A stretch of DNA of 64,000 nt from an uncultured Thermomicrobiales bacterium (GCA_964577155.1 CAZNYB010000003.1:13815-77814), one strand, 5' to 3'. Numbered from the stretch's first letter, positions 11,779-49,765 are shown. Numbers and translations: made by a program. The notes: generated by a model from the sequence alone, not told the origin.

Positions 11779-11782
11779 TGAA

Positions 11783-14625: not shown

Positions 14626-15333
14626 ATGAACCATGACCAGATAACCAATGATGGCAGAGGCAAGGTGGCAACTCCGGCGGTATTTCTCGATCGCGACGGT
14701 GTCCTCAATCGTAATCGCAACGATCACGTGAAGGCCTGGGATGAATTTCATTTCATTCCCGGGGCGCTTTCTGCGATGCGGCTACTCGCCACAATTGGCA
14801 TGCCGATCGTGGTGGTGACAAATCAGGCAATCATCAATCAAGGGAAGGTGCCTCGCAGCACCGTCGAATTCATTCATGCCAGAATGACCAGCCGGATACA
14901 GCGTACTGGCGGTCGAGTCGACCGCATTCTGTATTGTCCCCATACCTCTGAGGAACATTGCGGCTGTCGCAAACCGCAACCGGGACTGCTCATGTTGGCT
15001 GCCCATGAACTGAACATTGATCTGGCGCGATCAGTGTTTGTCGGGGATGCCTTGACCGATATCGAAGCAGGCCAACGAGCCGGTTGCCGAACAGTCCTCG
15101 TTCGCTCCGGACGTGGGAATGATGCTCTGTCCAAGCTATCGCAATCAGTCGTTCGCTGGCCCGACACGGTTGCCACGGACCTCTTGTCAGCTTTACCAGC
15201 AATACGTGATCTATTGGGATTAGTCGGGAGCAGCGATGGCGCTCCCGATATGCAGCAGCAGGAACGAAGACATGAAGAATTCACGGGACACCAGTATGCG
15301 GCGCATCTCTCTGACGCGGCGTTCGATTCTTAG
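14626..15333 (+). CDS. gmhB: D-glycero-D-manno-heptose 1,7-bisphosphate (or alpha-1-phosphate pathway) phosphatase, HAD-IIIA
   Basis: VFLDRDGVLN, VVVTNQ, CPHxxxxxCGCRKPQPGLL (zinc-binding loop) and FVGDALTDIEAG motifs. Confidence 0.8.
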   Translation: MNHDQITNDGRGKVATPAVFLDRDGVLNRNRNDHVKAWDEFHFIPGALSAMRLLATIGMPIVVVTNQAIINQGKVPRSTVEFIHARMTSRIQRTGGRVDRILYCPHTSEEHCGCRKPQPGLLMLAAHELNIDLARSVFVGDALTDIEAGQRAGCRTVLVRSGRGNDALSKLSQSVVRWPDTVATDLLSALPAIRDLLGLVGSSDGAPDMQQQERRHEEFTGHQYAAHLSDAAFDS

Positions 15334-29433: not shown

Positions 29434-29519
29434 ACAACCTGTCACTTATCAAAGACACCCATCCGGCACGCTCAGCAGCCTGGACGTTGCAGGCTTATGC
29501 TGATTGTGAAAGGCACGCT

Positions 29520-31061
29520 ATGGCTTCCATCGCCGACGCACAAATCCCAAACTTGACCCTGACTGCGCAACACGATCGCAAACGCCTGCATCGCCCTAAT
29601 GTCGCAATCCTCCTGCCGCTTGGCCTGGTGCTGTTGTTTGCCTTCATCTACACGCCTCCACGCTGGCAGGACTGGAACCAGAATTCACGCTTCGATCTAA
29701 CGCGAGCGATCGTCAACGATGGCACGGTGCGCATCGACCGCTATGCTGCCAATACCGGAGACTACGCCAAGTTCGGTGACCGCATGTACTCCGACAAGGC
29801 GCCAGGACTCTCCTTGATGGCAGTTCCAGTTTACGCGGTAACTACCACTCTGGAACCGTACGGGTTGGGACAGCTCTCCCAACGACTCGGACGAAGTGGC
29901 GGCTTTCAGGATTCGCTGAACCCTGATGGTCGCGGACTCAGCGGTGACCGCGTCAATACCGCCGTAGCCCTCTATATCGCGACGATCATGACCGTAAGCA
30001 TTCCTGCCGTCGTCATGCTGCTGCTACTGGCGCTCATCATCGAGCGCCTGACCGGCTGTCAGACCGCTGCAACGCTTGCGACTCTCGCGATTGGGCTGGC
30101 GACGCCGGTCTTCTCGTACTCGCAGGCATTCTACGGTCATATCCCTGCGGCAGCCTGTGTGGTCGGCATCCTTGCTCTCCTGATCCTCAACGACGACGGA
30201 TACCTGAGCACACGGCGATTACTCGGCATCGGTTTACTGGCCGGTTGGGCGATCGTCATCGAATACCCGGTGGCGGTGATCCTTCTGCCGCTTGGCATCT
30301 GGATCGTCTGCCGGGAACGCGAGCGAGCGGTCATCTACGGCCTCGCGGGCATGCTACTGCCACTGACGATCCTGGCCGCCTACGATCTCATCGCCTTCGG
30401 CACACTCCTACCAATCGGCTACGAACACTCTGCTCTTTGGCAGGAACAGCATTCAACCGGCTTCATGAGCGTGACCTATCCTCGCCCCGAAGCGCTCTGG
30501 GGTTTGACTTTCTCACGTTTCCGAGGCCTGTTCGTGCTCGCTCCGATACTGCTACTTGCACTGCCGGGCATGATCATCGGCCTGTGGCAGACCGCAACGC
30601 GGAGCCTCTTTGTCGCCGTCGGCGCGTCGATCCTGGCTTTCCTTCTCTTCATCAGCTCTTCGGTCATGTGGTGGGGCGGCTTTGCCGTCGGCCCCCGCTA
30701 CCTCGTGCCGGCGCTGCCACTTATGGCGCTGCCGCTCGGGGTCATTATCAGCAAGATCAACAGTGAGAGAATGCCGATGCGTGGACTAGGGCTGTGCGTC
30801 GTGGGCCTGTTCGGTCTTATCTCTCTGGCGCTGGTCTGGTCGACGACATTTGCTGGCCAGAACTATCCCGCGGACACAGTACGCAATCCACTGACCGCTT
30901 ACGTGATACCCGCTTTGCGACATGGAGATGTCGCCCGTAATCTGGGCATGGCATTGCAGCTGAGCGGTCTTGCCAGCCTGATTCCCCTGATCCTCATAAT
31001 GGCGGTCGGCACGGCCATCATCGGGCTGCGATTGCTGGTCCGGCCGGTGGTGACGGCATGA
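29520..31061 (+). CDS. polytopic GT-C-like membrane glycosyltransferase (start uncertain: TTG 29487 or ATG 29520)
   Basis: First-loop motif YAKFGDRMYSDKAPGLSLMAVP followed by many TM helices. PMT_2/ArnT-like pattern by eye. Confidence 0.6.
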   Translation: MASIADAQIPNLTLTAQHDRKRLHRPNVAILLPLGLVLLFAFIYTPPRWQDWNQNSRFDLTRAIVNDGTVRIDRYAANTGDYAKFGDRMYSDKAPGLSLMAVPVYAVTTTLEPYGLGQLSQRLGRSGGFQDSLNPDGRGLSGDRVNTAVALYIATIMTVSIPAVVMLLLLALIIERLTGCQTAATLATLAIGLATPVFSYSQAFYGHIPAAACVVGILALLILNDDGYLSTRRLLGIGLLAGWAIVIEYPVAVILLPLGIWIVCRERERAVIYGLAGMLLPLTILAAYDLIAFGTLLPIGYEHSALWQEQHSTGFMSVTYPRPEALWGLTFSRFRGLFVLAPILLLALPGMIIGLWQTATRSLFVAVGASILAFLLFISSSVMWWGGFAVGPRYLVPALPLMALPLGVIISKINSERMPMRGLGLCVVGLFGLISLALVWSTTFAGQNYPADTVRNPLTAYVIPALRHGDVARNLGMALQLSGLASLIPLILIMAVGTAIIGLRLLVRPVVTA

Positions 31062-32665
31062 AGCGCTTCGTCGCGGCGGTAACGATAGGCATCTACCTCG
31101 TCACGAGCATCCCTTATCTCTTTGGATATGTGGTGGCGGGCCAAGGGAACCACTTCACCGGTATCGTGTTCGACGTCCCCGACACCGCCCAATATTTCGC
31201 TTGGATGCGCGCCTTCTCACATGGCCCTGTCATCGCAAATCCTCTGACGCCGGAGCCCGGCATTGCGCGTTTTTTCAACCTGCAATGGTGGTTGCTCGGA
31301 ATGCTGGCATTCAAGACGCCGCTTGGTCCGATCGTCGTCTACCAACTGCTACGGATCATCGCCCTGGTTGGCTTCGCGGTGGCCACGGCGGTATTTTGCC
31401 GACTAACCGTGCCTCGCCACGAGAAATTAGCTTTTGCATTGCTCATGTTCGGATCCGGAGTAGGCTGGATGCTGGTTGTCTTGAAATATGCTCTCGGCGA
31501 GAGCGAGGTACGCTACCCGCTGGATATCCACGTCGGGGAAGCCAACGCCTTTTTCTCTGCCATGGCATTCCCACATCTCTTAGTGGCGGGAGCGTTGCTC
31601 GTCACTGTATTCATCCTGTTTCTGAAAGCTTCTGGATCACGGAAGCGGCGGTTCAGCCTGGCGCTTATTCCGCTGACATTGTGCCTGGGATTTTCACATG
31701 GCTATGATCTCATCCCCGCGATGGCGATTCCGATAGCGACGGCGTTGTTACTGTCATGGAGGGAGAAACGCGCCTCCGATTCCCTCTGGCCGGCCGCAGC
31801 AATTGTCGTTGGCGCGACGCCTCCTGCGCTATACGCGCTTCTGCTGACGCGCCTCGATGGAACGTGGGAAGGTGTCTTGAGTCAGTACGGCAACGCCGGG
31901 GTATTCTCTCCGTCGCCGCCACATCTACTGATCTTAATCGGACTGCCCATGATCTTGGCTTTACCCCAGCTCAAGCCCTCACTATGGAGAACAGCCGATG
32001 TCCCAGGACTGTTCATTCGAGTTTGGACGGTCATCGGCTTTTTCCTGTTGTACATATCCACCGATTACCAAATCAAGATGCTGATCGCATACCAGGTACC
32101 GGTCTCGCTGCTGTCTGCGCTAACCCTCACACAAGCGGCTGGCGCGCTTTCTCGACGCTTGGTTTCAATCGAACCAGCGAGAATCCGCATGGTTGGCGCT
32201 TTCATCGTCGTTGGATTCATCTCTCTGACGAATATCTACCTGACCGGCTGGAGAATGATCGATCTACATCGCACCGACTATCCCTATTACCTGTCGACCA
32301 CCGATATCCGGGCAATCACCGAACTCAATGAAGTAGCCGGAGAGTACGATGTTGTCCTTTCGTCGGAAGATATCGGTGTCTTCGTTCCTGTCTACAGTGA
32401 TTCGCGACCTTTTCTTGCACACTGGGCCCAAACTCTGGACTACCTGGATCGCCGGGACCAAGCCAGCTGGTTCTTCCAACCCACGACTTCCGATAGAAGC
32501 CGGGCCGACTTTCTCAACCAGCACAACATCGACTTCGTAATCTCAGGACCTGCCGAGGCTGCTCAATCGCAGACAACTTCTCCAGTCACACTGCATCTTG
32601 AGTCCGTTATCAGCGGGACTACAACACTGTATCGCTCGCCACCAATACAGGCTCGGAAACGATGA
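31058..32665 (+). CDS. polytopic membrane protein, GT-C-like candidate
   Basis: 535 aa with an acidic first-loop motif (FDVPDTAQYFAWMR), more than 10 TM helices and a soluble C-terminal domain. 4-nt ATGA overlaps on both sides. Confidence 0.5.
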   Translation: MKRFVAAVTIGIYLVTSIPYLFGYVVAGQGNHFTGIVFDVPDTAQYFAWMRAFSHGPVIANPLTPEPGIARFFNLQWWLLGMLAFKTPLGPIVVYQLLRIIALVGFAVATAVFCRLTVPRHEKLAFALLMFGSGVGWMLVVLKYALGESEVRYPLDIHVGEANAFFSAMAFPHLLVAGALLVTVFILFLKASGSRKRRFSLALIPLTLCLGFSHGYDLIPAMAIPIATALLLSWREKRASDSLWPAAAIVVGATPPALYALLLTRLDGTWEGVLSQYGNAGVFSPSPPHLLILIGLPMILALPQLKPSLWRTADVPGLFIRVWTVIGFFLLYISTDYQIKMLIAYQVPVSLLSALTLTQAAGALSRRLVSIEPARIRMVGAFIVVGFISLTNIYLTGWRMIDLHRTDYPYYLSTTDIRAITELNEVAGEYDVVLSSEDIGVFVPVYSDSRPFLAHWAQTLDYLDRRDQASWFFQPTTSDRSRADFLNQHNIDFVISGPAEAAQSQTTSPVTLHLESVISGTTTLYRSPPIQARKR

Positions 32666-34743: not shown

Positions 34744-36393
34744 ATGAATTCTCGCAATTTGTATTTGGAGTTTGTAAAAAACTGGTACTGGCTAGTTGCC
34801 CTCGGCATGATTATCTCGCTTGCCGCCACCTACCTTGCGATTGGTAATCGGGCCACCTTATATCGCTCGACTTCAACACTTCAAGTTGGTCAAACCCTTG
34901 AGAATGAAAGCCCAAGCCAGGACGAGATAGCTATTACCGATCGCCTCGTCACCATCTATGGCGATCTGGCTACGAGAGATCCCGTGCTTGAAGCTGTCGT
35001 CACCAACCTCCAACTTGCACTGACGCCAGACGATTTGCGTGCCCGCATGCTAGTGAAGGCAGTTCCGGCGACCCAGCTCATCGACATCACCATCATTGAT
35101 TCCGATCCTGTGGTCGCCGCGGCAATTGCAGACGAAGTCGCGCGGCAGATCGCGCTTGCAAGTCCGGGGCCAAACACGGACTCAGAGACCCAACGCTTTC
35201 TGACGGATCAGCTCAGCGACCTGCAGGCGAAGATCATCGCGGCGCAAGACGAGCTAAAGACGACTGAAACATCAATGCTAGGTATGACTAGCGCGGCGGA
35301 CATCTACGACGCTCAGCAGCGTATTGATCTGCTCAATGCGCAGATAGAATCCTGGCAGCAGACGTATGGCGTGTTGCTCACGCAGCTAGAGCCAAGCGCT
35401 ACGAACGTCGTCCGCGTCATCAACGATGCCACGCCTTCCGTCAGACCCCTGCCACACCGGACGATGCTCTACTATGGATTCGCAGTCCTAATGGGAGCCG
35501 GGCTCGCGACCCTTATCGCTCTCGCGCTTTCCTATTTCGACCGTGCGATAAGAAATAGCAAGGATCTAGCAGACTGGGACGAAGATCTCCCGATTGTTGA
35601 TATTCCATCTTTCAAAACTCGTAAGTCGTCGGCGGTCGTCGCTATGCACAATCCGGCGAGTCAAGGCGCAAGCGCCTACCGCGTCCTCCGGAACGTGCTC
35701 AAACTCAACATCAAAGACAACAGGTCGACTGCAATGATGGTCACGAGTTTGGGTGTCGGAGAAGGGAAGACGACGACAGCTGCCAATCTGGCTGTTTCGC
35801 TCGCGAACAGCGGCACTCTCGTGATCGTTGTTGATGCTAACTTCCACAACCCTGAGCTTGACGAGCTCTTTGGAGCCAGTCTCCAACAGGGGTTTAGCGA
35901 TCTGGTAGTCGGTCGCCGCACGGTGCGAGAGGTGGTTCAGGAAACCGATCACCCCCGCCTTTGGTTGCTGGGTAGCGGCACCGTGCCGTTCGACTATCTC
36001 GATGTCCTCGCATCCGACAAGGTCAAGACCGCGGTTAATGCCTTGCTCCAGCAAGCGGACGTTGTCCTCTTTGACGCGCCAGCGCTAGATCAGGAACAAG
36101 ATGCTCAGTTGCTTGCGAAGGTGATCGAGCAGGTTGTACTCATCGCCGAGTCCGCACATTCGACGCCAGAGTCAATCGCCACCGCCATCGAAATGATTCG
36201 AGAAGCTGGTGCGCAGGTTTCTGTCGTCGTCGTCAACAAGGTGCGACGCCCCTGGCATTCCTTCGTTCTGCAGTGGCCGTTGTCGCGTGAACGCCGGCTC
36301 GAAGCCCGCGCAAGCGCCAGACGTGGGCGTAAAATGGCGGAAACGCCTGGAGATTTGCCAAAAGAACAAACCTCAACGGGAGTCGCCGACTAG
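34744..36393 (+). CDS. polysaccharide co-polymerase (Wzz domain) fused to a BY-kinase-like P-loop ATPase
   Basis: N-terminal TM helix, Wzz-like periplasmic coiled region and a second TM helix. These are followed by Walker A GVGEGKTTTAANLA, Walker A' VVDANFHNPEL and Walker B VVLFDAPALD. The ATG at 34744 has GGTGAGGG upstream. Confidence 0.75.
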   Translation: MNSRNLYLEFVKNWYWLVALGMIISLAATYLAIGNRATLYRSTSTLQVGQTLENESPSQDEIAITDRLVTIYGDLATRDPVLEAVVTNLQLALTPDDLRARMLVKAVPATQLIDITIIDSDPVVAAAIADEVARQIALASPGPNTDSETQRFLTDQLSDLQAKIIAAQDELKTTETSMLGMTSAADIYDAQQRIDLLNAQIESWQQTYGVLLTQLEPSATNVVRVINDATPSVRPLPHRTMLYYGFAVLMGAGLATLIALALSYFDRAIRNSKDLADWDEDLPIVDIPSFKTRKSSAVVAMHNPASQGASAYRVLRNVLKLNIKDNRSTAMMVTSLGVGEGKTTTAANLAVSLANSGTLVIVVDANFHNPELDELFGASLQQGFSDLVVGRRTVREVVQETDHPRLWLLGSGTVPFDYLDVLASDKVKTAVNALLQQADVVLFDAPALDQEQDAQLLAKVIEQVVLIAESAHSTPESIATAIEMIREAGAQVSVVVVNKVRRPWHSFVLQWPLSRERRLEARASARRGRKMAETPGDLPKEQTSTGVAD

Positions 36394-36411
36394 CAAACGA
36401 GGTCTCTGAGC

Positions 36412-37671
36412 ATGCGCTTGCTCATGTTGACACAGATCGCACCTTTTCCGCCGGATGCTGGCCCAAAGATCAAAACGTATTTTCTCCTTAAGAAACTGTC
36501 GATGTTCCACGACATCGACTTAGTGACTTTCGCTCGAGATGAGCACGAGCGCGAAGCCGCCAACGCATTGAAACATCTCTGTTCCAATGTCACAACTATT
36601 TCACTGGAGCGCAGCAGAGTTCGAGAACCTCTGTATGCGGCTCGAGGCTGGGCTAGCCGGCAGCCATTTCTCGTTGCTCGTGACTACCGTAAGGAAATGA
36701 TGGCAACGGTCAGCCGCCGCGTCGAATCAGGATCGATCGATGTGGTTCACGCAGATCAGCTTTCAATGGCTCAATATCTGCCTGATCGACGAAGATTACC
36801 CAGGGGAGTCTATCTTGTCTTCGATGCCCACAACGCAGTCTGGAAATTGGTGCAATCACTGGTTGGCAACCAACCAACACCTGTCCATCGAGTCGCCGCT
36901 TCTATTGAATGGCGCATGCTGAAGCGTTTCGAAGGGCGCGCTTGCTCAATTTCCAATCTAACCCTCGCGGTATCGCCGATCGACGTATCCTATCTTCAGC
37001 AAGCAGCCGGCGGCGCGGGCAGATACGTTATCGCTCCGATTGGCATCGAGGCTCGAGAAACCGAGCAAATACCAATACGTGCGTCGAAGCGTCGCTTGTT
37101 AAGCATTTCGACAATGCACTATCCACCAAACATCGACGCAATCCGCTGGTTCAGAGAATTCGTTTGGTCACAGTTCACACCTGCTGAGCGGAGCATCGGC
37201 TTTGATATAGTAGGCAGCCGCCCGCCTGCGGATATCATTTCCTGGGCTAGCGAAGATCCGCATGTCAAGGTCCATGGATTTGTCCCTGATCTTTCACCGT
37301 TACTCAATAATGCGGGCATCTTCGTCGTACCGCTGAACGCTGGCAGCGGTATTCGAGTCAAGATACTGGAGGCAATGGCGCATGGATTGCCGATCGTGTC
37401 GACGAGTATAGGAGTTGAAGGGTTGCCGGTTGTTTCCGGTGAGCATCTGCTAGTTGCGGACACACCGGAAGCGTTCGCAAACGCAATTCGACGACTCATG
37501 GCTGACCCTGTCCAACGCCGGAAGGTTGGTACGAGTGGCAGGTCTTTCGCCATGGACTACGACTGGCGCTCCTGTCTTCAGCCGGTCATTGAAGCCTACG
37601 ATCACCTGAGCGATCCAACGATGGGATCAACCAATCACATGCTTCAGCCCGATCAGAATGAGCAACCATAA
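36412..37671 (+). CDS. glycosyltransferase family 4 (GT-B fold)
   Basis: IFVVPLNAGSGIRVKILEAMAHGLPIVSTSIGVEGL motif. Confidence 0.8.
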   Translation: MRLLMLTQIAPFPPDAGPKIKTYFLLKKLSMFHDIDLVTFARDEHEREAANALKHLCSNVTTISLERSRVREPLYAARGWASRQPFLVARDYRKEMMATVSRRVESGSIDVVHADQLSMAQYLPDRRRLPRGVYLVFDAHNAVWKLVQSLVGNQPTPVHRVAASIEWRMLKRFEGRACSISNLTLAVSPIDVSYLQQAAGGAGRYVIAPIGIEARETEQIPIRASKRRLLSISTMHYPPNIDAIRWFREFVWSQFTPAERSIGFDIVGSRPPADIISWASEDPHVKVHGFVPDLSPLLNNAGIFVVPLNAGSGIRVKILEAMAHGLPIVSTSIGVEGLPVVSGEHLLVADTPEAFANAIRRLMADPVQRRKVGTSGRSFAMDYDWRSCLQPVIEAYDHLSDPTMGSTNHMLQPDQNEQP

Positions 37672-37737
37672 GCCCAGACTGGCAACTATCGCAAGCAGCC
37701 ACCATTCCCAGTAGATGGAGCCTCGACTATCGTCCAT
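37627..37737 (-). CDS. possible 36-aa single-TM mini-protein (below the ORF-track size cutoff)
   Basis: My translation gives MDDSRGSIYWEWWLLAIVASLGLWLLILIGLKHVIG. AAGGAG lies 9 nt upstream of the ATG. It overlaps the 3' end of the convergent GT4 gene by 45 nt and has no homology support. Confidence 0.25.
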   Translation of the reverse strand: MDDSRGSIYWEWWLLAIVASLGLWLLILIGLKHVIG

Positions 37738-38111
37738 ACCACGTAGCTCCTTGGCGCCGTTGAAACTAGAATTCCATACCAGGTAACTCCAGGAGCTAGA
37801 ATATTTGGTCCCAGATCGACGCGTTGCGGGTTACTAAAACGTCAGAGTCGCGCGAGACGTCATTCAAACCGAACAGAACCGGGACCAAAACAGCTACCGG
37901 ATACAGTTTGCCTGGTTACTTTTGTACTGGTTTGGTGGCATGTTGATAGTACTGCCTGGCTGAGAGCGGCGGCAGAGCTAGTCAAACCGGAATACCAGCA
38001 GAAGTCAGCGTCTGATCTATCAAAATCAGACTTCACAACCCGTGCCAACAGATGCAATCTCAATAGTGTATACCTATGCAATCCTGGAGTGGATAGGCGA
38101 AGGGAACACAC

Positions 38112-38855
38112 GTGGCTCTTCAGGATCCGGTGGCGGTTGCTTCAGGCAATATCGTGATCGTCGATGATGATGTGGTGACGACCAAAGTGCTGCGCTTCCT
38201 GCTCGAGGAGGAAGGCTACTCTACCTACGTCATCCATCGCGGCAGTCAGGTCGTCCAGGCTGTCACCAACCAGGAAACCGACCTCGTCCTCCTCGACATC
38301 AATCTGCCCGACATCGATGGCTTCACCCTCACCAAACTCCTGCGCGCTCACCGCTACTTCGGTCCCATCATCCTCCTCACCGGCCGGAGTTCTCTGGCCG
38401 ATAAACTCAGCGGCTTCGAACATGGCGCCGACGATTATCTTCCTAAACCTTACGAACCGCTCGAACTCCTCGCCCGCATCGAAGCCGTCCTCCGTCGAGC
38501 CAAACATGCCGACCAGCAACCTCTCGGTTCTGTCCTCCGCGTCGATGATGCCGAACTCTCGCTGGGTGAACTCACCTACCGGAGCAATGCCGTCGCAGAC
38601 GCCCTGCTCACTCCCACCGAAATGCGGCTGCTCGAAGTGCTGATGCGCAACAGCTGGATCGTCATTGGACGCGACACCTTGATCGAACGTGTCTGGGGGT
38701 ATGACTTTGAAGGCGACACCAATCGTGTCGATGTCTACATTCGCCGGGTCCGTCGCAAGATCGAAGCCGATCCCCAACAACCCCGCTATCTCCACACCGT
38801 CCGTGGCGTCGGCTACGTCTTTCGTGTCGAATCAGCTACGGTCAACACCGAATAG
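38112..38855 (+). CDS. OmpR/PhoB-family response regulator, copy 1 (canonical receiver plus winged helix)
   Basis: Receiver residues are present: IVDDD, DLVLLDINLPDIDG, LLTGRS, GADDYLPKP. Trans_reg_C domain (LTPTEMRLLEVL, VDVYIRRVRRKIE, TVRGVGYVF). GTG start with GAAGGGAA upstream. Confidence 0.85.
   Translation: MALQDPVAVASGNIVIVDDDVVTTKVLRFLLEEEGYSTYVIHRGSQVVQAVTNQETDLVLLDINLPDIDGFTLTKLLRAHRYFGPIILLTGRSSLADKLSGFEHGADDYLPKPYEPLELLARIEAVLRRAKHADQQPLGSVLRVDDAELSLGELTYRSNAVADALLTPTEMRLLEVLMRNSWIVIGRDTLIERVWGYDFEGDTNRVDVYIRRVRRKIEADPQQPRYLHTVRGVGYVFRVESATVNTE
38155..38837 (+). repeat. 683-bp perfect direct repeat, copy 1 (internal to the response regulator CDS)
   Basis: Compared line by line with 40935..41617 at an offset of 2780 nt. 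No mismatch seen between these bounds, and the flanks are unrelated. Confidence 0.9.
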
Positions 38856-39024
38856 CTCTGCTGAGACCTCCCAGTTGTTCCCTCTCAAGCGCTCATGTCA
38901 GATTTCTCATACGCCAGTGCCCGGAATGACGCACTCGCCACTACATTGACGAGTTCTACTATGAACGTCGGAGCGTTCATCGCCTCGACATATCATTCGT
39001 CGACTCGATGTGGAGAGCATAGCC

Positions 39025-39687
39025 ATGGCGCCGAACATCTCCGACTACCTCAAGGATATCCAGTGTGCTCTGGAGCTAGTCAATGCTGATGATATTGAAG
39101 CGATCGTTTCGAGACTGTTTCGAGCCTACGCCGAGAGCCGGACCGTGTTCACCTGTGGGAATGGAGCGAGTGCTGCGCTTGCTTCACACATGGCTTGTGA
39201 CCTCGGCAAGGGAACCGCACCGGATCTTGGTAGAGGTCCGGACAAACTGTCGGCGAGACGGCTACGCATTCATAGTTTGAACGATAACGCCGCACTGCTA
39301 ACTGCTTATAGCAACGACCTTGCTTACGAAGATGTCTTTGTAGAGCAGTTAAAGAATTTCCTCAGCCCGAATGACGTCCTCATCGGTATCAGCGGAAGTG
39401 GTGGATCACCGAACGTTCTGAGAGCAATGGCCTATGCGCGCAAGGCTGGTGCAACCACGATAGGGCTCACCGGCTCGCAATCTAGCGCGTTCAAGATCAT
39501 TGAACTCTCCGACCTCCGATTGCAAGTGGCCCCGGAATTGATGGAGCAGATTGAGGATCTGCACGTAATTGTTCACCACATTATCGGGCTGAGATTGCGT
39601 GCAAGAATTGCCGACTACGCACCTGTCGATTTAGCCGAGCCTGTGATGACCAACATCGAGCGCCCATATATCAATCCTTGGGACTAA
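39025..39687 (+). CDS. gmhA: SIS-domain sedoheptulose-7-phosphate isomerase (phosphoheptose isomerase)
   Basis: FTCGNGASAALASHMACDLGK and LIGISGSGGSPNVLRAMAYARKAGATTIGLTG motifs. The ATG at 39025 has GGAGAG 7 nt upstream. Confidence 0.75.
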   Translation: MAPNISDYLKDIQCALELVNADDIEAIVSRLFRAYAESRTVFTCGNGASAALASHMACDLGKGTAPDLGRGPDKLSARRLRIHSLNDNAALLTAYSNDLAYEDVFVEQLKNFLSPNDVLIGISGSGGSPNVLRAMAYARKAGATTIGLTGSQSSAFKIIELSDLRLQVAPELMEQIEDLHVIVHHIIGLRLRARIADYAPVDLAEPVMTNIERPYINPWD

Positions 39688-40502
39688 GGATCACCCGTCA
39701 AAGATACGTTATCTCCACGATCGGCCGGACGGGTTTGAGGTTTTCCAGCGTTGGGCATTTGGACGGACATCTCTTCGCGTGAGAGCTTGTAATCTGACGA
39801 TCGCCGGAACCGGGCAACGTATCCACGATTCTGGACTGTTATGACCGAGATCGCCACGAATCCGCTGGTTTCGAGTTTTCGGCGTATATGGCTAATGATC
39901 CTGGGCACTGTCGAGGGCTGAACTCGGCCTCTATCCATGTCTTTCGCTATGGTGTCAGTAGATACCGGTAGGCCATCATGTTCGAGTAGGACGCTCAAGA
40001 CTTCCCATTCGAGTGGAGAGAGCTGTACCTTAAGGGGTCCGGCTACGATTGTATGGCTCTCAGAATCAAACTTGATGCCACTACTTTCGCGCCGTTCGGT
40101 GAACGGCCAGATCCGGGTAACGAGAGCGCGCATCCTCGCAACAAGTTCGGCAGGTTCGTAAGGGCTGACCAGATAATCATCGGCGCCGGAACGCAGAACA
40201 TCGGCTATGACCTGAGGATTCCGGTCAGCGCAAATAACCAGAATCTTCGCCCGACTTACAGCTCTGGCTCCAACAACGATTTCCAATCCTCTCCGAGCAT
40301 CCTGTGTCAAACTGAAAATGATCAAATCCAGCTGCTCATCGGGAACCTCCGCCAGTTGAAACGGATCAACAGGTCGAGTCTCCCAACCTAGTTCCTCGAC
40401 CAACGATACAATTTCACTGGTTTCGAACGGTTCCTCCGAATAAATTCCAACGTATATTGGACCTTGGTCGGCACGCTCGCTAGCCTGGATGTCAGCTTCC
40501 AT
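39684..40502 (-). CDS. atypical OmpR-family regulator with a pseudo-receiver domain
   Basis: The winged-helix output domain is intact (LSPLEWEVLSVLL, IISHIRRKLE, VQNRGYVARF). The receiver lacks the phospho-chemistry residues: DLIIFSL instead of DxxxxD, VSPYEP instead of TKPF, YSEEP instead of DD. Confidence 0.75.
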   Translation of the reverse strand: MEADIQASERADQGPIYVGIYSEEPFETSEIVSLVEELGWETRPVDPFQLAEVPDEQLDLIIFSLTQDARRGLEIVVGARAVSRAKILVICADRNPQVIADVLRSGADDYLVSPYEPAELVARMRALVTRIWPFTERRESSGIKFDSESHTIVAGPLKVQLSPLEWEVLSVLLEHDGLPVSTDTIAKDMDRGRVQPSTVPRIISHIRRKLETSGFVAISVITVQNRGYVARFRRSSDYKLSREEMSVQMPNAGKPQTRPADRGDNVSLTGDP

Positions 40503-40513
40503 GGGTTAACTCC

Positions 40514-40732
40514 TTAGTCGAGCCTCTGATGACGCAATCCAGACATGTTATCGACAGTCTCAGCACCAATTACTTTGTCCAATTCACCATATATCGTCTG
40601 TATAGTAATTGGAAGAACCAGGAGAATCCAAATTGCAACAAGATAATTCGTCTGAACATACATACACCTAATCAATAGCGTAAGCAACTTACCTGGCGGT
40701 TGTCCATCATCCCCATGAAACGAGCGAATCAC
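40514..40732 (-). CDS. possible small membrane protein immediately upstream of the atypical regulator
   Basis: 72-aa ORF (49 aa from the internal ATG) with one hydrophobic helix (LVAIWILLVLPITIQTIY). Its stop lies 11 nt before the regulator start. The region is low-GC and coding status is unproven. Confidence 0.25.
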   Translation of the reverse strand: MIRSFHGDDGQPPGKLLTLLIRCMYVQTNYLVAIWILLVLPITIQTIYGELDKVIGAETVDNMSGLRHQRLD

Positions 40733-40751
40733 CGGCTCGCAGCTTCCTTCA

Positions 40752-40785
40752 TGACAGATTTGTCAGATTTATGACAGTCGGGTCA
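40752..40785. promoter_or_regulatory. tandem operator-like sites C1 (TGAC-AGATTT-GTCA, 40752-40765) and C2 (TGAC-AGTCGG-GTCA, 40772-40785)
   Basis: Read directly (catGACAGATTTGTCAGATTTATGACAGTCGGGTCAcc). The two perfect-arm palindromes start exactly 20 bp apart. They lie in the AT-rich divergent gap between the atypical regulator and response regulator copy 2. Confidence 0.6.
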
Positions 40786-40912
40786 CCAATTGCGAGTCAA
40801 ATCAGCAGCTATTCTGATTATGTTGTTCAGAATTCTAAACAGCTGGATGTCTTGCGATCCAGTAACCGATGTCTGGATACAACTGACATAGTTGCGACAA
40901 ACATGGAAATGA

Positions 40913-41638
40913 GTGACAATGTCTTCCAATGTCATGATCGTCGATGATGATGTGGTGACGACCAAAGTGCTGCGCTTCCTGCTCGAGGAGGAAGGCTACT
41001 CTACCTACGTCATCCATCGCGGCAGTCAGGTCGTCCAGGCTGTCACCAACCAGGAAACCGACCTCGTCCTCCTCGACATCAATCTGCCCGACATCGATGG
41101 CTTCACCCTCACCAAACTCCTGCGCGCTCACCGCTACTTCGGTCCCATCATCCTCCTCACCGGCCGGAGTTCTCTGGCCGATAAACTCAGCGGCTTCGAA
41201 CATGGCGCCGACGATTATCTTCCTAAACCTTACGAACCGCTCGAACTCCTCGCCCGCATCGAAGCCGTCCTCCGTCGAGCCAAACATGCCGACCAGCAAC
41301 CTCTCGGTTCTGTCCTCCGCGTCGATGATGCCGAACTCTCGCTGGGTGAACTCACCTACCGGAGCAATGCCGTCGCAGACGCCCTGCTCACTCCCACCGA
41401 AATGCGGCTGCTCGAAGTGCTGATGCGCAACAGCTGGATCGTCATTGGACGCGACACCTTGATCGAACGTGTCTGGGGGTATGACTTTGAAGGCGACACC
41501 AATCGTGTCGATGTCTACATTCGCCGGGTCCGTCGCAAGATCGAAGCCGATCCCCAACAACCCCGCTATCTCCACACCGTCCGTGGCGTCGGCTACGTCT
41601 TTCGTGTCGAATCAGCTGTTGACAATCTGGATGCTTAA
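40913..41638 (+). CDS. OmpR/PhoB-family response regulator, copy 2
   Basis: Identical to copy 1 from IVDDDVVTTKV to VFRVESA. The N-terminus (MTMSSNVM) and C-terminus (VDNLDA) are unique. Start is GTG 40913 or ATG 40919. Confidence 0.85.
   Translation: MTMSSNVMIVDDDVVTTKVLRFLLEEEGYSTYVIHRGSQVVQAVTNQETDLVLLDINLPDIDGFTLTKLLRAHRYFGPIILLTGRSSLADKLSGFEHGADDYLPKPYEPLELLARIEAVLRRAKHADQQPLGSVLRVDDAELSLGELTYRSNAVADALLTPTEMRLLEVLMRNSWIVIGRDTLIERVWGYDFEGDTNRVDVYIRRVRRKIEADPQQPRYLHTVRGVGYVFRVESAVDNLDA
40935..41617 (+). repeat. 683-bp perfect direct repeat, copy 2
   Basis: See copy 1 (38155..38837). Confidence 0.9.
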
Positions 41639-41896
41639 CCTGATAATCAAGAATCGAAGCAATGTGTAAATTCATCCACCGACGTGGGCTATTGGACCGG
41701 GGACGGACGATAAACCCCGACTTACGTCACGATGCGTTATGACATGTCGAATGGATTATCCCATGGTTTTCGTTACGGTCGAGCATGATTGACGTTTTCA
41801 AATTACGACTCCGTCTCGGTCAAGTCGTTCGGGCAGGAAGTCTGATCGAGGTATGGATCATGCGGGGTAAGCTGTAGATCCTAGTAGGCAATTGGA

Positions 41897-42676
41897 ATGA
41901 CAACGCAACGCAATCGTTCAACGCACGATGCCTCCGACAAGGATTCAGTGCGCAACGAGCAGCCTGAACAGCAGCCAGCGCCTGTCGACAGGCGGTTGAT
42001 TGCCGCGATGGCCGGTCATGAATTGCGAGAACCTATCAATGCCATTATCAGCTTCCTCAATGTTACGGTCCAGGAACGTCTCGGTCCATTGAATGCACTG
42101 CAGTCGGAGTTCCTGCGTAGCACGGAATCAGCCGCAAGAAGACTCGAACGGCGCATTGATGACGTGCAAGTCGCGCTGCTGGAAGGCGACGCGCTGAAAC
42201 TTCATAGAGCATGGATCGATCCCAATAGACGAGTCGTCGCGACATGCCGGGAGCTCGAATGGGCGGCAGAGAAGTACGAGACAAAAGTGCTCATGAACCT
42301 TGAACGGTCGACAAGAAATCCGGGGACATGGGCAGATGCCGATCGCCTCGCTCAAATACTATCCAACGTAATTGAGAACGCAATTCGGTACGCTCCAGCG
42401 GGAACTGAAGTGCGCGTTTCAACGTCTTTTCGAGAACATGGTTACTGGACATTCATTGTGGAGAATGACCTGGAGCAAGATCAACAGTTTAGTACTGCCA
42501 ACTGGTTTCTGCCTGGCGATCGCTCAACACGAGCAAACGATCGGCAACGGCCTGGGCTAGGTTTAGGGCTGACTATTGCGAAGTACCTGGTCGAGGCACA
42601 TCAAGGAGAGATCTGGGCAGATATCGTCGACAGTAAAGTACAGGTAGGATTCTCGATCCCTCACCACAAAAGGTAG
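41897..42676 (+). CDS. small cytoplasmic histidine kinase (DHp plus HATPase_c only, no sensor or TM region)
   Basis: H-box AAMAGHELREPINAI, N-box LSNVIENAIRYAP and G2 box RPGLGLGLTIAKYLVEAHQGEIWAD. The expected G1 box DxGxG reads ENDLEQ. Confidence 0.75.
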   Translation: MTTQRNRSTHDASDKDSVRNEQPEQQPAPVDRRLIAAMAGHELREPINAIISFLNVTVQERLGPLNALQSEFLRSTESAARRLERRIDDVQVALLEGDALKLHRAWIDPNRRVVATCRELEWAAEKYETKVLMNLERSTRNPGTWADADRLAQILSNVIENAIRYAPAGTEVRVSTSFREHGYWTFIVENDLEQDQQFSTANWFLPGDRSTRANDRQRPGLGLGLTIAKYLVEAHQGEIWADIVDSKVQVGFSIPHHKR

Positions 42677-43270: not shown

Positions 43271-44314
43271 ATGACAGTCATTGCCCGCGCACCTCTCAGA
43301 ATCGGACTGGCTGGCGGTGGTACGGATCTACCCGCTTACGCCGATCACCATCAAGGGTTGGTCGTCAGCACGACGATCGATCGATACGTCTACGTCATCC
43401 TGACCAGCACCGCGCAGTCATCGCTACAAATCATGGCTGCCGACGCCAACTCGATGCTATCACGTCGCGACCATCTCTTTGATTCAGCGCTGTTCTGGGG
43501 AGCGGACTATCGCTTACCACTTGAAATCCTCGAGTATTTTGGAGTCTCAGGAGGCAGGCGTGTCTTCATCGCCTCAGAAGTTCCGCCCGGCACCGGGCTC
43601 GGCTCCTCTAGCGCAACGGCAGTCGCTCTCATTCGGGCGCTCGATGCTGATTTGACTCTCCGGCTCTCTACGAAAGAGATCGCGGACATCGCCTGTCACA
43701 TCGAAATCGACCGTATGGGAATGCCGATCGGAAGACAGGATCAATACGCAGCTGCATTCGGCGGTCTGAACGTTCTGACATTCACCTCAGAGGACACGCA
43801 GATTGAGTCATTGCGGGTTCCTGAATTGTACCGGCATGAGCTTGAGTCTCGTATCTTACTCTTCTTCACCGGCCGTCGGCGACGGTCAACCAATATTCTA
43901 GAAAGCCAGCGCAAGGCAACCACTGAAGCTGGCTCACGAACACTGGAATCTCTCCACGAGATCAAGCGTCTAGCGAAGCAGATGATCACCGCCATCCAGA
44001 ATGGGGATTTCGAGCTAGTAGGTCGATTGCTCGACGAGTCCTGGAACCAGAAACGACGACTCGCGAGTGGCGTTTCTACGCCCGAGATAGATAGCTGGTA
44101 TGACGAAGCTCGAAAAGCCGGCGCTTTGGGTGGAAAGATCACCGGCGCAGGAGGCGGCGGCTTCCTGATGCTATATGCCGAGCCGCACCTGCGCTCAGCC
44201 GTGATCCGTCGCATGAGTGAGCTTGGTCTCGTCTGGGTCGACAGCGCGTTCGACCGGCAGGGGGCGATTCCATTGCTCGCTATCCCGAGCGGTGAACTGG
44301 TTTACGCTGATTAG
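43271..44314 (+). CDS. hddA: GHMP-family sugar kinase, D-glycero-alpha-D-manno-heptose 7-phosphate kinase-like
   Basis: RAPLRIGLAGGGTDLPAY N-terminus, GHMP motif PPGTGLGSSSATAVALIRAL and C-terminal GGKITGAGGGGFLMLY. Confidence 0.7.
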   Translation: MTVIARAPLRIGLAGGGTDLPAYADHHQGLVVSTTIDRYVYVILTSTAQSSLQIMAADANSMLSRRDHLFDSALFWGADYRLPLEILEYFGVSGGRRVFIASEVPPGTGLGSSSATAVALIRALDADLTLRLSTKEIADIACHIEIDRMGMPIGRQDQYAAAFGGLNVLTFTSEDTQIESLRVPELYRHELESRILLFFTGRRRRSTNILESQRKATTEAGSRTLESLHEIKRLAKQMITAIQNGDFELVGRLLDESWNQKRRLASGVSTPEIDSWYDEARKAGALGGKITGAGGGGFLMLYAEPHLRSAVIRRMSELGLVWVDSAFDRQGAIPLLAIPSGELVYAD

Positions 44315-44662: not shown

Positions 44663-45120
44663 GGAATGTTCGTTTGGCGCTCGTACGGTGGGGACTGGGG
44701 CGAGCCAATCGGATCATCGACACATGTTGGAAACTCAGCTAGATGCAGATCTAGTAAACAGACGATATTTGACATTACTGAGAGGATGGAATTGCGTCGA
44801 TCGGTGACTGCTCTGGCAGCGGCTGCACTCTGTCATGAAGTAAAAGAAGGTGCCGCGCTGGAACGGTAGATTAAAATACCGTTGTAATCGGCATCGAGTG
44901 TCAGCAGTCGGCCAAACACCAACCGATCATCATAAATCCCCGGGGAAGATGTGACGGACCTTCGCTGAGGCTACCCCACCTTTAATTCAGTGCGCTCATA
45001 CCGCCGGACCTTGTTGTGCTGGCGTGCATTAGGAATGTGGGTCTATTCGGACCTGAGGTTACCTCGTGCGTTGCCACCGGTTGGTTTTGCGTGCACTCAA
45101 AATCAAGAGGGGCATACTCA

Positions 45121-46641
45121 ATGAACGCGTGTTTAAAGCGACCGTCTTCACGGCGGCTAGGATTTCTTTTCTTCGCTGGCCTGGCAGCTATTATTGTTAT
45201 GGCAACTTCCCCCCAGGACGCCTCGACCTCCATACGGGCAGGTGACAACTTCGGGTCAACCATGATCGTCAGCGACATCAGCCTCACGATATCTGGAGAT
45301 TCTCAGATTCAGGTGATGGTGGAAGTGCGATCTGCCGACACTGCCGTTCGCAGGGCAATTGTGAAGGGCAAACTCACGGTTCCATCCTCCGACCAATCGA
45401 TTTGGATACGAGGTCGAACAGCATCCAACGGTCAATTCGTGAAGAAGCTGTCGCAATCGGGTCCTGGCGCCTATGTTTTCGAAGTCACCGAAGTCAAAGC
45501 ACGAGGTTTGACGTTTGACCGGGATTCGAGCCCCAGTTTGGAAGCCACGCTCACAATAGATGATTCGGGCATACCTGCTGCGACGGCGACGAATGTTCCC
45601 AGTCAGCCGCCTGCGACGGCGACCGCGACAACTGTTGTGCCAACCGCAACGAGCGTTGTGCCAACGGCGACCAATGTGCCACCGACCACCACCTCGGGCA
45701 ACTACTGCTCTGAAGCCATCCACAACCAGTACGTCGCCACCGGCCCCGACGGCAACCTCTATCCCACCTGGCATCCTCCTGTCGATCCTGCCACCGGCTG
45801 CGTCTTCGACCACGAACACGGCGACAATCCCAACGGCAACCCCGCCTTGCAAGGTCGCAATGTCGTCTTCTGCTATATGGCTACCTTCACAAATAACTGT
45901 ATGCCTCACAACGGCTACAAAGTCTTCGCCTGGTCTAACATCTCTCATTACAACGCACCAGCTCACTCCGGCGCTTCCGTCGTCATGGTCCTCCACCAGG
46001 GCACCAGTGGCGCGGGCCGCTTCACCACCGTCTTCCATGACATCGAAATTCACTACTACAATCCCAACGACGGTCGCGAAGCTCACATCTACATGCTCGC
46101 ACCCTTTGGCGAACTCCTCGTTGGCTGTGGCGCAAACGATCCCAACATGGATCTGCGTCTCAGTCAAGCCAATGCTCCCGGCGCCCGTCAAATATCGGCC
46201 AGCAAGTGTTTCGATCCACCTAATATCCCCTACGAGGACTGGATCACTGCTCTCTACATCGGAACCGACAGTCAGGGCAACTGGAAAGGGTATATGGATC
46301 CGCACTTCGCCATCTTCAATCCCAACACCTACTGCATCGTGCAGGACAACAGTTGTGTGCTCGGTTACTCCGATGAGCGTGCCGGTACCGGAGCCGATCC
46401 AAACAGTGCCGACTCCTGGTTCAAAGGCGTCAAACGCGAGGCCTATCTCAACCAGGTCTGGATCAGAAACGCTGGCGGTTCCACCACCATCTGGACCGAT
46501 CCCTACGGCAAACTCGTCCCGGCTGGACAGGGCATCCCGCAATACCTCTCAACCGTCAACCAACAACCGTTGACCAACTCCGCCGCCTTCGGGGCCGACC
46601 ACGACAACGATCCCGCTGGCGCTGTCCACGCTCCTAACTAG
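45121..46641 (+). CDS. secreted protein of unknown function: signal peptide, beta-rich N-domain, Pro/Thr/Ala linker, Cys/His-rich C-terminal domain
   Basis: ORF 45016..46641, start moved to the ATG at 45121 (MNACLKRPSSRRLGFLFFAGLAAIIVMA) with AGAGGGG upstream. Linker ATATNVPSQPPATATATTVVPTATSVVPTATNVPPTTT is encoded by short imperfect tandem repeats near 45577-45700. The C-domain contains YPTWHPPVDPATGCVFDHEHGDNP. Confidence 0.7.
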   Translation: MNACLKRPSSRRLGFLFFAGLAAIIVMATSPQDASTSIRAGDNFGSTMIVSDISLTISGDSQIQVMVEVRSADTAVRRAIVKGKLTVPSSDQSIWIRGRTASNGQFVKKLSQSGPGAYVFEVTEVKARGLTFDRDSSPSLEATLTIDDSGIPAATATNVPSQPPATATATTVVPTATSVVPTATNVPPTTTSGNYCSEAIHNQYVATGPDGNLYPTWHPPVDPATGCVFDHEHGDNPNGNPALQGRNVVFCYMATFTNNCMPHNGYKVFAWSNISHYNAPAHSGASVVMVLHQGTSGAGRFTTVFHDIEIHYYNPNDGREAHIYMLAPFGELLVGCGANDPNMDLRLSQANAPGARQISASKCFDPPNIPYEDWITALYIGTDSQGNWKGYMDPHFAIFNPNTYCIVQDNSCVLGYSDERAGTGADPNSADSWFKGVKREAYLNQVWIRNAGGSTTIWTDPYGKLVPAGQGIPQYLSTVNQQPLTNSAAFGADHDNDPAGAVHAPN

Positions 46642-46666
46642 GGAGACATCGTCGGACATACATGGA

Positions 46667-46685
46667 CCGGCCCTTTCTGGGCCGG
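46667..46685. terminator. hairpin CCGGCCC-TTTCT-GGGCCGG between convergent genes
   Basis: Read directly. Followed by a T-rich stretch (catgtttctactttt). Positioned between the stops of 45121..46641 (+) and 46695..47423 (-). Confidence 0.5.
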
Positions 46686-46694
46686 CCCATGTTT

Positions 46695-47423
46695 CTACTT
46701 TTCCGGGAACGTGTTCCTATCAAACAGGAAGAGCTGCATCACAACAAGCACAAGTAGCATCTCGCTCCCTTCCTGTACCTGTTGCACGAATGAGAGTCGT
46801 CTCCAAGCAGAGGCAGTCATCGCGTAGGGTTCCGTTGGACTGACAAGTTCGTAGTTCTTGGGATTTCCAGAAAGCGCGACTTCATAGCGATCAAGCAGCG
46901 GATTGAATACCGCAATGATAACGACCAACCAGAATGCAGCGATAGCAATCCTATTGCCCGGCAGATGTCTGTACAGCAACCCAAAGAAGATCGCTGTTAT
47001 GAACGCCGCTAGGACCAGAAAAAATACGCCGCCCGGATGAACGAGGAGCAGGTCGGAGAGCGCATAACCAGCACATCCAACACCAAGCAAAGCCCATCGC
47101 AGTCGCTCCCACCGCCTTGATTGTGCGCTACGCAGACAAGCTATCAGACTCGACAGGATGCCGATCGCTGCGGCATACACAGCAGCGAGATTGGCTGACC
47201 CTTCCAGATCAACTTGTTTCGCAAGCCACGCGGGAATCAGGTCAGAAAAATACAGGTTCCCGAGGCTCATGCCGAGTAGCACTGCGAGGATAGAGATCGA
47301 TCCAACGAGTATTTCGTTCCGGCGCTCGCTGCACCATCTCAGCAATCGATCAGCTTTGATCTCCAACCATCCCGTGGAAAAGAATGCGACTTTCTTCGCC
47401 GAGCCCGTTCTGAAGTCAACCAT
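46695..47423 (-). CDS. polytopic membrane protein of unknown function
   Basis: 242-aa ORF with about 6 hydrophobic helices and no recognisable motif. Confidence 0.55.
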   Translation of the reverse strand: MVDFRTGSAKKVAFFSTGWLEIKADRLLRWCSERRNEILVGSISILAVLLGMSLGNLYFSDLIPAWLAKQVDLEGSANLAAVYAAAIGILSSLIACLRSAQSRRWERLRWALLGVGCAGYALSDLLLVHPGGVFFLVLAAFITAIFFGLLYRHLPGNRIAIAAFWLVVIIAVFNPLLDRYEVALSGNPKNYELVSPTEPYAMTASAWRRLSFVQQVQEGSEMLLVLVVMQLFLFDRNTFPEK

Positions 47424-48577: not shown

Positions 48578-49765
48578 ATGACAACGAAGAGACTTCGCAT
48601 AGGAATCGACGCGCGCTATCTCTCGCATGGCCTGGTTGGCGGGGTGCACACCTACGTCCGCAACCTTGCGAACGCCCTGATCGAGTCGGATGCGCCCATT
48701 GACTATGATCTCTGGATCGATGACAAGTGTCCATATGATGCCGGAGCACTGCCCGTTGGATCGCAAACGCGGATTCTCTCCTGGAGGAGCCCGCTCAGCA
48801 GTCTTCGCCACGATTGGCGGCTGGGGATGCTCATGCGCCGAGCCGGAGCTGATGTAGTGCACTTTCCGGCAAACTATGGCAATATGCCGCCCGGTGTTCC
48901 CACTGTTCTGACGCTCCACGACGCGATCAACATTCTGCCTTACCTGGAGATCGTACGGGGTCATGAGAAACGGCCCCGCGCGCTGCTCACCATGAGCTAT
49001 CTTCACCTTATGACGCGTTGGGCCGTCCAGCAGCAACCACTTGTCATTACCGTCAGCCAGCACGCACGCCGGGAGATTTTGCGGCACTCGGACCTAAAGC
49101 CTGAGCGCGTGCAGGTGGTCTATTCGGCGGCGGACGCGATCTTCCGGAAGCTGGCCTGGGGAGAACGTGTCGCAGAGCAGGAGCGCCTCCAGCTGCGAGA
49201 ACGCGTTCTTCTAGCCGATGCGATCAAGAATCCCCAGACAACGCTCCAGTCCTATCGACGCCTGCCCAATGACCTGCGTGCGAAGACAAGTCTGATATTC
49301 TTTTCGCGACGTGAGCCAGGCGCAGACGTAACCGCAGCCGCCAGAAACGGGGAATGCATAGTCATCCGACGACCCTCTACCGGCTACCTGGTGAAGCTGT
49401 ACAATCTTGCCGATATCTTTGTGTTTCCGTCCTATATCGAAGGTTTTGGACTGCCGGTGCTAGAAGCAATGAGCTGCGGCACCCCCGTCGTGGCGTCCGG
49501 AGCTGGATCGCTTCCGGAAATCGTCGATGGCGGCGGCTGTATCATCCCCGACCCCGACGATCATGCACACTTCACGAAGGTGCTAACTGATCTTCTGTCC
49601 AATTCAGAAAGACGAGCACACTTATCCGAGCTGGCCCTGGAGCGATCGGCGGCATTCTCCTGGCGACACACCGCGGCCGAAACGCAAGCAGCTTATATTC
49701 GCGCAATCGAATCATCGCGCAAAACCAGGGCTCGTGCCAGCAAACACTCAACCGCACCCGTCTAA
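48578..49765 (+). CDS. glycosyltransferase family 4 (GT-B fold)
   Basis: MTTKRLRIGIDARYL N-terminus and IFVFPSYIEGFGLPVLEAMSCGTPVVASGAGSLPEIV core. Confidence 0.8.
   Translation: MTTKRLRIGIDARYLSHGLVGGVHTYVRNLANALIESDAPIDYDLWIDDKCPYDAGALPVGSQTRILSWRSPLSSLRHDWRLGMLMRRAGADVVHFPANYGNMPPGVPTVLTLHDAINILPYLEIVRGHEKRPRALLTMSYLHLMTRWAVQQQPLVITVSQHARREILRHSDLKPERVQVVYSAADAIFRKLAWGERVAEQERLQLRERVLLADAIKNPQTTLQSYRRLPNDLRAKTSLIFFSRREPGADVTAAARNGECIVIRRPSTGYLVKLYNLADIFVFPSYIEGFGLPVLEAMSCGTPVVASGAGSLPEIVDGGGCIIPDPDDHAHFTKVLTDLLSNSERRAHLSELALERSAAFSWRHTAAETQAAYIRAIESSRKTRARASKHSTAPV

Follow-up and report, generated by a model that had tools for sequence, protein, structure and literature searches.

Ectopic gene conversion between bacterial paralogs has its classic example in tufA and tufB of Salmonella, and RecA-dependent unequal exchange between direct repeats leads to deletion or amplification, enteric bacteria with amplified genes being an example. 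Two-component regulators that have been duplicated are usually treated as genes that diverge, so that cross-talk is avoided; work from the Laub laboratory reportedly describes paralogous two-component pathways that become insulated after duplication, with adaptive divergence preventing cross-talk. Here we analyse a stretch of 64,000 nucleotides of DNA from an uncultured Thermomicrobiales bacterium (GCA_964577155.1, CAZNYB010000003.1:13815-77814), hereafter the window, in which two OmpR-family response regulator (RR) genes, RR-A and RR-B, share a perfect direct repeat of 683 bp. We consider it very likely that this repeat was produced by recent homologous gene conversion between the tandem paralogs, and that such conversion has recurred in the clade. 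Two published cases provide the closest comparison. A prokaryote-wide survey found recurrent, long-lasting conversion in 26 genes, mostly encoding subunits of stable complexes, and its text makes no mention of response regulators or two-component systems (Wang & Chen 2018, PMC6053082). The methanogen genes mtrA-1 and mtrA-2 are described as tandem duplicates with long-lasting gene conversion (PMC4632066).

The two genes and the two copies of the repeat are as follows, in positions of the window; contigs designated L009, L012 to L014 and L017 are from the Logan assemblies discussed below.

38112-38855, plus strand: RR-A, an OmpR-family response regulator of 247 amino acids (Pfam Response_reg 95.5 bits, Trans_reg_C 98.2 bits)
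38155-38837, plus strand: repeat copy 1, the core of RR-A, with receiver and winged-helix domains, from IVDDD to FRVESA (exact match; L017 ends at 38184, L009 starts at 38808)
40913-41638, plus strand: RR-B, an OmpR-family response regulator of 241 amino acids from a GTG start or 239 amino acids from the ATG at 40919 (Pfam; P0247)
40935-41617, plus strand: repeat copy 2, the core of RR-B (exact match; L009 ends at 40964; L012, L013 and L014 start at 41588)

The original prediction had described a perfect direct repeat of 683 bp, with its copies 2780 bp apart, confined to the interior of two response regulator genes, and this description is right in every detail that could be checked. Compared base by base, 38155-38837 and 40935-41617 agree at all 683 positions at an offset of 2780, and this is the maximal exact run. 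Beyond the edges the identity falls to the random level: of the 10 bases preceding the left edge 6 agree, and past the right edge no resemblance can be recognised. A repeat finder, whose output for the pair was clipped to a 300-nt reference, recovers the same pair (38155/40935) as the sole long repeat of such quality in the window, and the repeat search of the window found no inverted repeats at the repeat edges. The block lies in frame, and in the same reading frame, within both open reading frames (ORFs). In RR-A it is preceded by 14 codons and followed by 5 codons and the stop; in RR-B it is preceded by 7 codons (5 if translation starts at the ATG at 40919) and followed by 6 codons and the stop. 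The private tails are thus MALQDPVAVASGNIV at the N-terminus and TVNTE at the C-terminus of RR-A, and (MT)MSSNVM and VDNLDA, respectively, in RR-B. In an alignment with 15 homologs, the repeated block coincides with the family's conserved core (IVDDD to FRVESA), and the N- and C-terminal tails are variable.

Both proteins are OmpR/PhoB-family regulators, with Response_reg scores of 95-96 bits and Trans_reg_C scores of 98 bits, all above the cut-offs, and with the receiver motifs DDD, LLD, T and KP seen in the alignment. The exact RR-A protein is recorded in NCBI and in Logan (P0241), and RR-B is recorded from the same NCBI contig (P0247). We had also considered the GTG as the start of RR-B; this version has no exact match among public proteins, the public call starting at the ATG at 40919.

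Several further observations concern the repeat and its edges. The GC content at third codon positions of the repeated core (38157-38837) is 0.69, compared with 0.51-0.62 in the neighbouring genes, a value that would fit either GC-biased gene conversion or high expression. On the minus strand, antisense ORFs run inside both copies (38142-38795, 217 amino acids; 40835-41575, 246 amino acids); they almost certainly just reflect how the regulator genes are composed in codons and are not genes themselves. A promoter and terminator scan of the region remained at background level overall, and terminator-like matches inside the repeat were rejected, as they lie in coding sequence. The best sigma-70-like match in the region is at 41619-41647 (TTGACA, a 17-nt spacer and GATAAT; 11 of 12 positions). 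It begins 2 nt past repeat copy 2, within the codons of the RR-B C-terminal tail (VDN = GTTGACAAT); judged from its sequence, it may be the promoter of the downstream histidine kinase gene, and it could help to explain why the conversion tract stops there.

The evidence that carries the gene conversion reading comes from the separate ancestries of the flanks and the identity of the cores. The order of genes in the locus is a BY-kinase/Wzz-like gene, a GT4 glycosyltransferase gene, RR-A, a GmhA-like gene, a pseudo-receiver regulator gene on the opposite strand, RR-B, a histidine kinase gene and an HddA-like gene. The nearest named relatives of the two regulators belong to Chloroflexota, and several are labelled Thermomicrobiales. 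The region upstream of RR-B aligns with contigs L007 and L098, and the GTTGACAA stretch at the start of its C-terminal tail aligns with L007. The right flank of RR-A, with the gmhA-like gene, is orthologous to L005, L098 and L099, and the GN/GH-IV ending of the RR-A N-terminal tail is common to L008 and L005. L098, a 3826-bp ENA contig that comes from a different species and a different project, has the same gene order as the window: the last 117 nt of RR-A, gmhA (73% amino acid identity), the pseudo-receiver gene (54%), RR-B and the kinase gene (65%). Since the left flank and C-terminal tail of RR-B and the right flank of RR-A each have their own orthologs, and since L098 has the same order, the duplication is older than the homogenisation.

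The cores behave differently from these flanks. The two copies in the window are 100% identical, whereas they are 87% identical to the ortholog in L007 and 85% to that in L098 (the RR-B core of the latter at 85% nucleotide and 92% amino acid identity). Synonymous divergence (dS) is 0 between the window copies, 0.57 to L007 and approximately 1.05 to L005 and L008; selection at the protein level therefore cannot explain the identity. The same likeness within a genome appears in L098, where the 3' ends of the two regulator genes match at 93 of 96 nt (approximately 97%), with all 3 differences synonymous, although each end is only approximately 85% identical to the window. Moreover, P0243, which carries the A-type C-terminal tail KQDIDQ, and P0248, the RR-B of L098, fall in the same 90% cluster and have identical cores of 224 amino acids. 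A third lineage is represented by the Logan contig L099 (gmhA 70%, pseudo-receiver 49% amino acid identity), which stops approximately 30-37 nt into the RR core on either side, the same break pattern as in the window strain with slightly different boundaries. In a neighbour-joining tree of the cores, genes in A-type and B-type contexts do not form separate clades but group by lineage.

More distant relatives have retained diverged copies. In the metagenome-assembled genome CFX8, the paralogs on L101 and L102 are 75.3% identical over 677 nt, the L101 gene being followed by gmhA and the L102 gene being flanked by a pseudo-receiver-like gene and a kinase gene. The paralogs of L010 are 70.8% identical and inverted, and in both L010 and L011 the pair flanks the pseudo-receiver gene. 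Within L010, 254 nt of the DNA-binding half (8244-8497 and 11770-12023) are 78% complementary, compared with 71% for the whole core, and this stretch may be a trace of an older partial conversion. The original prediction had proposed gene conversion between paralogs as the source of the repeat and a comparison of the locus in relatives as a check. The comparison agrees with it: the flanks have separate ancestries, the cores are identical including at synonymous sites, related lineages are homogenised independently, and the paralogs of distant relatives are only 71-75% alike. Homogenisation has occurred independently in at least two lineages, probably three, which means that the pair evolves in concert.

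On this basis, we propose the following course of events. RR-A and RR-B would be old tandem paralogs, each with its own promoter, its own tails and its own downstream partner, the gmhA-like gene in the case of RR-A and the histidine kinase gene in the case of RR-B. A recent non-reciprocal homologous exchange, presumably of the RecA type, would have placed the whole alignable core of one gene over that of the other; this recombination pathway is what we infer from the pattern of the cores. The tract would stop where alignable homology ends, that is, just before IVDDD and just after FRVESA, as expected of a homology-driven process, and it would thus leave the tails, the promoters and the neighbouring genes untouched. 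The proximity of 2.8 kb and the direct orientation would favour repeated exchange; indeed, the one lineage with inverted paralogs also has diverged copies. The outcome would be two promoters that drive two regulators with identical receiver and DNA-binding domains. Because these surfaces are the same, RR-A and RR-B would answer to the one kinase nearby and use the same operators, and would differ only in expression and tails; we infer that the two proteins are functionally equivalent.

Several points weigh against this interpretation or limit it. The interior identity of the window copies is known from this assembly only, and an assembler that walks twice through a collapsed repeat would yield identical copies, possibly hiding a few single-nucleotide differences. 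The RR-A copy of L098 is known as DNA for 96 nt only, the full-core comparison being one of proteins that stem from separate samples, and L099 contributes contig ends only. Paralogs that are approximately 80% alike would be poor substrates for a first conversion, so that a continuous history of exchange has to be assumed. The type of paralog is also confounded with lineage, and the direction of copying cannot therefore be inferred. We had taken RR-B as the donor, reading the split of the window and L007 from L005 and L008 as one of B-type and A-type clades, and withdrew this after L098 and the tree had been considered. A further sequence that bears on exchange is P0244, whose core follows one variant over residues 1-149 and the other over residues 188-224, with a breakpoint between them; the sequences compared come from different samples.

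The other explanations of the repeat make predictions that can be compared with the same data and with independent read sets. The source contig (88,895 bp) is probably from a metagenome assembly, and repeat resolution by its nature returns exactly identical copies, so that the second copy or its perfect identity could have been made by the assembler or by polishing; the original prediction had named such an artefact as the finding to exclude. Logan assemblies (k=31) of the runs SRR15635845 to -58 contain a strain that is 99.6-100% identical to the window, and the contigs at the boundaries were drawn from the runs SRR15635845, -46, -47 and -57. L017 covers 36385-38184, L009 covers 38808-40964 (the spacer and 30 nt on each side), and L012, L013 and L014 start at 41588; at all four repeat junctions the contigs of the four runs stop exactly 30 nt (k-1) inside the repeat. 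Contig ends at k-1 are those of a de Bruijn node with two entries and two exits, and the independent reads thus contain a repeat with two ways in and two ways out, whereas a single copy would yield no branching. These four read sets hold both left flanks and both right flanks, with boundaries that are the same to the base; the k=31 graph is, however, the same for the full form and for a deletion form plus a circle, and does not distinguish the phase of left and right flanks. A look-up of a 227-amino-acid core fragment in the collection, aimed at the unitig of the repeat itself, gave no match, and there is accordingly no 683-bp contig in the collection that would confirm an unbranched interior. 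Two more observations speak for real copies: the same two-copy synteny was assembled in L098 in another project, and a complete RR-A with its own two flanks is also present in a Logan assembly. The repeat is not an artefact of this assembly, and we regard an origin of the second copy or of its perfect identity in assembly or polishing as highly improbable. An integration of the Campbell type, in which circular or mobile DNA carrying an RR core, the gmhA-like gene and the pseudo-receiver gene entered a single ancestral RR gene, would predict exactly identical direct repeats that bracket the cargo and leave two intact genes, and a few relatives (L003, L004 and L100) indeed have only one RR at comparable loci. 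Such a recent insertion is nevertheless very unlikely, as the linkage of the RR-B left flank to the B-type C-terminal tail and that of the RR to the downstream gmhA are each found in other species, and the whole order from RR-A to the kinase is common to L098 and L099; with spacer genes at 49-73% amino acid identity, this two-gene arrangement must be far older than the identity of the cores. Paralogs grouped by lineage would also result from independent recent duplications of the RR core, but the same two gene shells would have had to be hit on every occasion, with tails, neighbours and spacing unchanged. Had purifying selection acted with extreme strength on the nucleotides themselves, orthologous cores would be alike, but these differ at many synonymous sites (dS 0.57-1.05), so that constraint of this kind is absent. 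To independent duplication or nucleotide-level selection we give hardly any credence, less than to any other explanation.

A different reading concerns not the origin of the repeat but its use. The original prediction had suggested that recombination between the copies deletes or amplifies the segment between them, leaving one hybrid but intact regulator gene, and that this could act as a reversible switch for heptose supply to the glycan. The first part holds as geometry: an exchange between the copies would take out or double a 2780-bp unit made up of the spacer and one copy of the repeat, and either hybrid gene would remain intact and in frame. The repeat is also held near-identical in more than one lineage, which fits the idea that RecA-mediated exchange deletes, circularises or amplifies the unit, generating heterogeneity of heptose or glycan in the population, and that the repeats are kept for this purpose. 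As a lead only, two proteins from relatives, P0245 and P0242 (on contigs of 1160 and 911 bp), pair a B-type N-terminal tail with an apparent A-type C-terminal tail, which is the junction expected of a circle or of tandem amplification. These contigs are very short, however, and low coverage can lead an assembly through a repeat along a chimeric path; that TRSP is an A-type tail is a deduction in its own right. The mosaic core of P0244, on a contig of 904 bp, is a lead of the same kind. P0245, P0242 and P0244, all from Joint Genome Institute (JGI) metagenomes, are either real recombination products or chimeric assemblies. Against a switch, the ORFs scanned with Pfam between 15 and 63 kb showed no recombinase, integrase or transposase, deletion would be irreversible unless the circle replicated, and the full arrangement and its spacing are conserved between species (2780 in the window and 2792 in L098). 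Five hybrid proteins were predicted for the window strain, and none had an exact match on record; this negative carries little weight, as short-read contigs end at the repeat. The reversible heptose switch thus finds no direct support, and we judge it unlikely. It is similarly doubtful that the identical cores are maintained via copy-number variants of the module of gmhA-like and pseudo-receiver genes, with P0245 and P0242 as real junctions.

The DNA between and beyond the two copies of the repeat holds the following features.

38838-40934, no strand assigned: unique spacer between the repeats, 2097 bp (recovered as one 2157-bp Logan contig, L009, at 99.8% identity)
38895-38905, plus strand: motif ATGTCAGATTT upstream of the gmhA-like gene, a candidate operator (window motif scan)
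39010-39687, plus strand: GmhA-like SIS-domain sugar-phosphate isomerase, 225 amino acids (Pfam SIS_2, 67 bits; best match TIGR00441)
39684-40502, minus strand: pseudo-receiver OmpR-type regulator, 272 amino acids (Trans_reg_C 38 bits; Response_reg 22.3 bits, below the cut-off of 30.2)
40751-40770, plus strand: two overlapping copies of the same motif (at 40751 and 40760) in the intergenic region between the pseudo-receiver gene and RR-B (window motif scan)
41897-42676, plus strand: soluble histidine kinase, 259 amino acids, with HisKA and HATPase_c and without a sensor domain (Pfam)
43271-44314, plus strand: HddA-like GHMP sugar kinase (Pfam GHMP_kinases_N/C; best NCBIfam match HddA)

The label gmhA given in the original prediction stands at the level of family resemblance only. 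The product scores 94.5 bits against TIGR00441, far below the curated equivalog cut-off of 209.45, and the HddA-like kinase encoded nearby is likewise a family-level label (206 bits in NCBIfam, cut-off 600 bits). The gmhA-like gene is syntenic in L098, L099, L005, L100 and L101. The histidine kinase is the sole kinase of the locus; its gene is syntenic on the 3' side of RR-B in L098 and likewise in L102, L100 and L010. A 72-codon ORF in the spacer is probably spurious.

The product of 39684-40502 retains the winged helix and lacks a phosphorylatable receiver. In a BLASTP alignment with RR-B, the phospho-acceptor Asp is replaced by Ser, the Lys by Ser and the Thr by Cys, and the acidic pocket DDD has become SEE; judged by these residues, the protein probably works like an OmpR-type DNA binder with a pseudo-receiver. 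Its family is small and well conserved (P0121-P0133), and its known members all come from metagenome fragments. A search of 185,579 species-representative genomes yielded no ortholog, single-protein searches of genome and metagenome contigs returned distant OmpR matches only, and an alignment-based search gave 80 generic OmpR regulators with no ortholog among the matches listed. The lineage of this regulator is evidently absent from the species-representative genomes.

Within the window, the motif ATGTCAGATTT is confined to two intergenic regions of this locus (38895, 40751 and 40760), and it is also present upstream of gmhA in L099 and L005. It is a candidate operator, either for the identical regulators or for the pseudo-receiver protein, a function suggested by its position and recurrence.

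Taken as a whole, the window is a large island for glycan synthesis; among its products are several glycosyltransferases, a Wzy-like protein, a radical SAM enzyme, acetyltransferases and a PseC-like aminotransferase. Five ORFs of the island, of 524, 535, 541, 242 and 732 amino acids (29487-32665, 45016-47423 and 49762-51960), have no Pfam match, and three of the five have no NCBIfam match either; several are conserved in relatives. At 15236-21754, an ORF of 2172 amino acids encodes TIG/IPT domains and a purple-acid-phosphatase N domain, and it contains internal repeats (18269-18492, 19697-19920 and 21170-21223) with a period of 1428-1431 nt and 72-91% identity.

Gene conversion between bacterial paralogs is established, and what is mildly unexpected here is the class of genes; the locus by itself reveals no new mechanism. 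Its practical consequence is that short-read assemblies of this uncultured Chloroflexota lineage are predictably broken at the repeat, where chimeric gene calls are possible. Its biological meaning would be that one regulator protein operates under two expression regimes, beside a pseudo-receiver paralog and a single kinase.

Compared with direct-repeat amplification systems, the window has a competent substrate in a perfect repeat of 683 bp whose copies lie 2.8 kb apart; unlike in those systems, no alternative configuration has been observed in the window strain. The likeness to known concerted paralogs is closer. As in those, the copies within a genome are more alike than orthologs, including at synonymous sites, the flanks are not homogenised, several lineages are affected and homologous recombination is presumed. 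The window pair differs from them in consisting of two-component response regulators, in lying 2.8 kb apart in direct orientation, and in a tract that spans precisely two functional domains and spares the short private tails. The methanogen genes mtrA-1 and mtrA-2 are reported to be likewise neighbouring duplicates in a conserved cluster that conversion has kept alike over long periods, and they differ from the window pair in being subunits of an archaeal enzyme complex. The sharpest contrast is with the insulated paralogs of two-component pathways, and with duplicated regulators in general: the specificity-bearing domains of RR-A and RR-B are kept identical, so that the two cannot be mutually insulated, and only their expression signals and tails can differ. 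With this, a pair of response regulators joins the short list of prokaryotic genes that evolve in concert.

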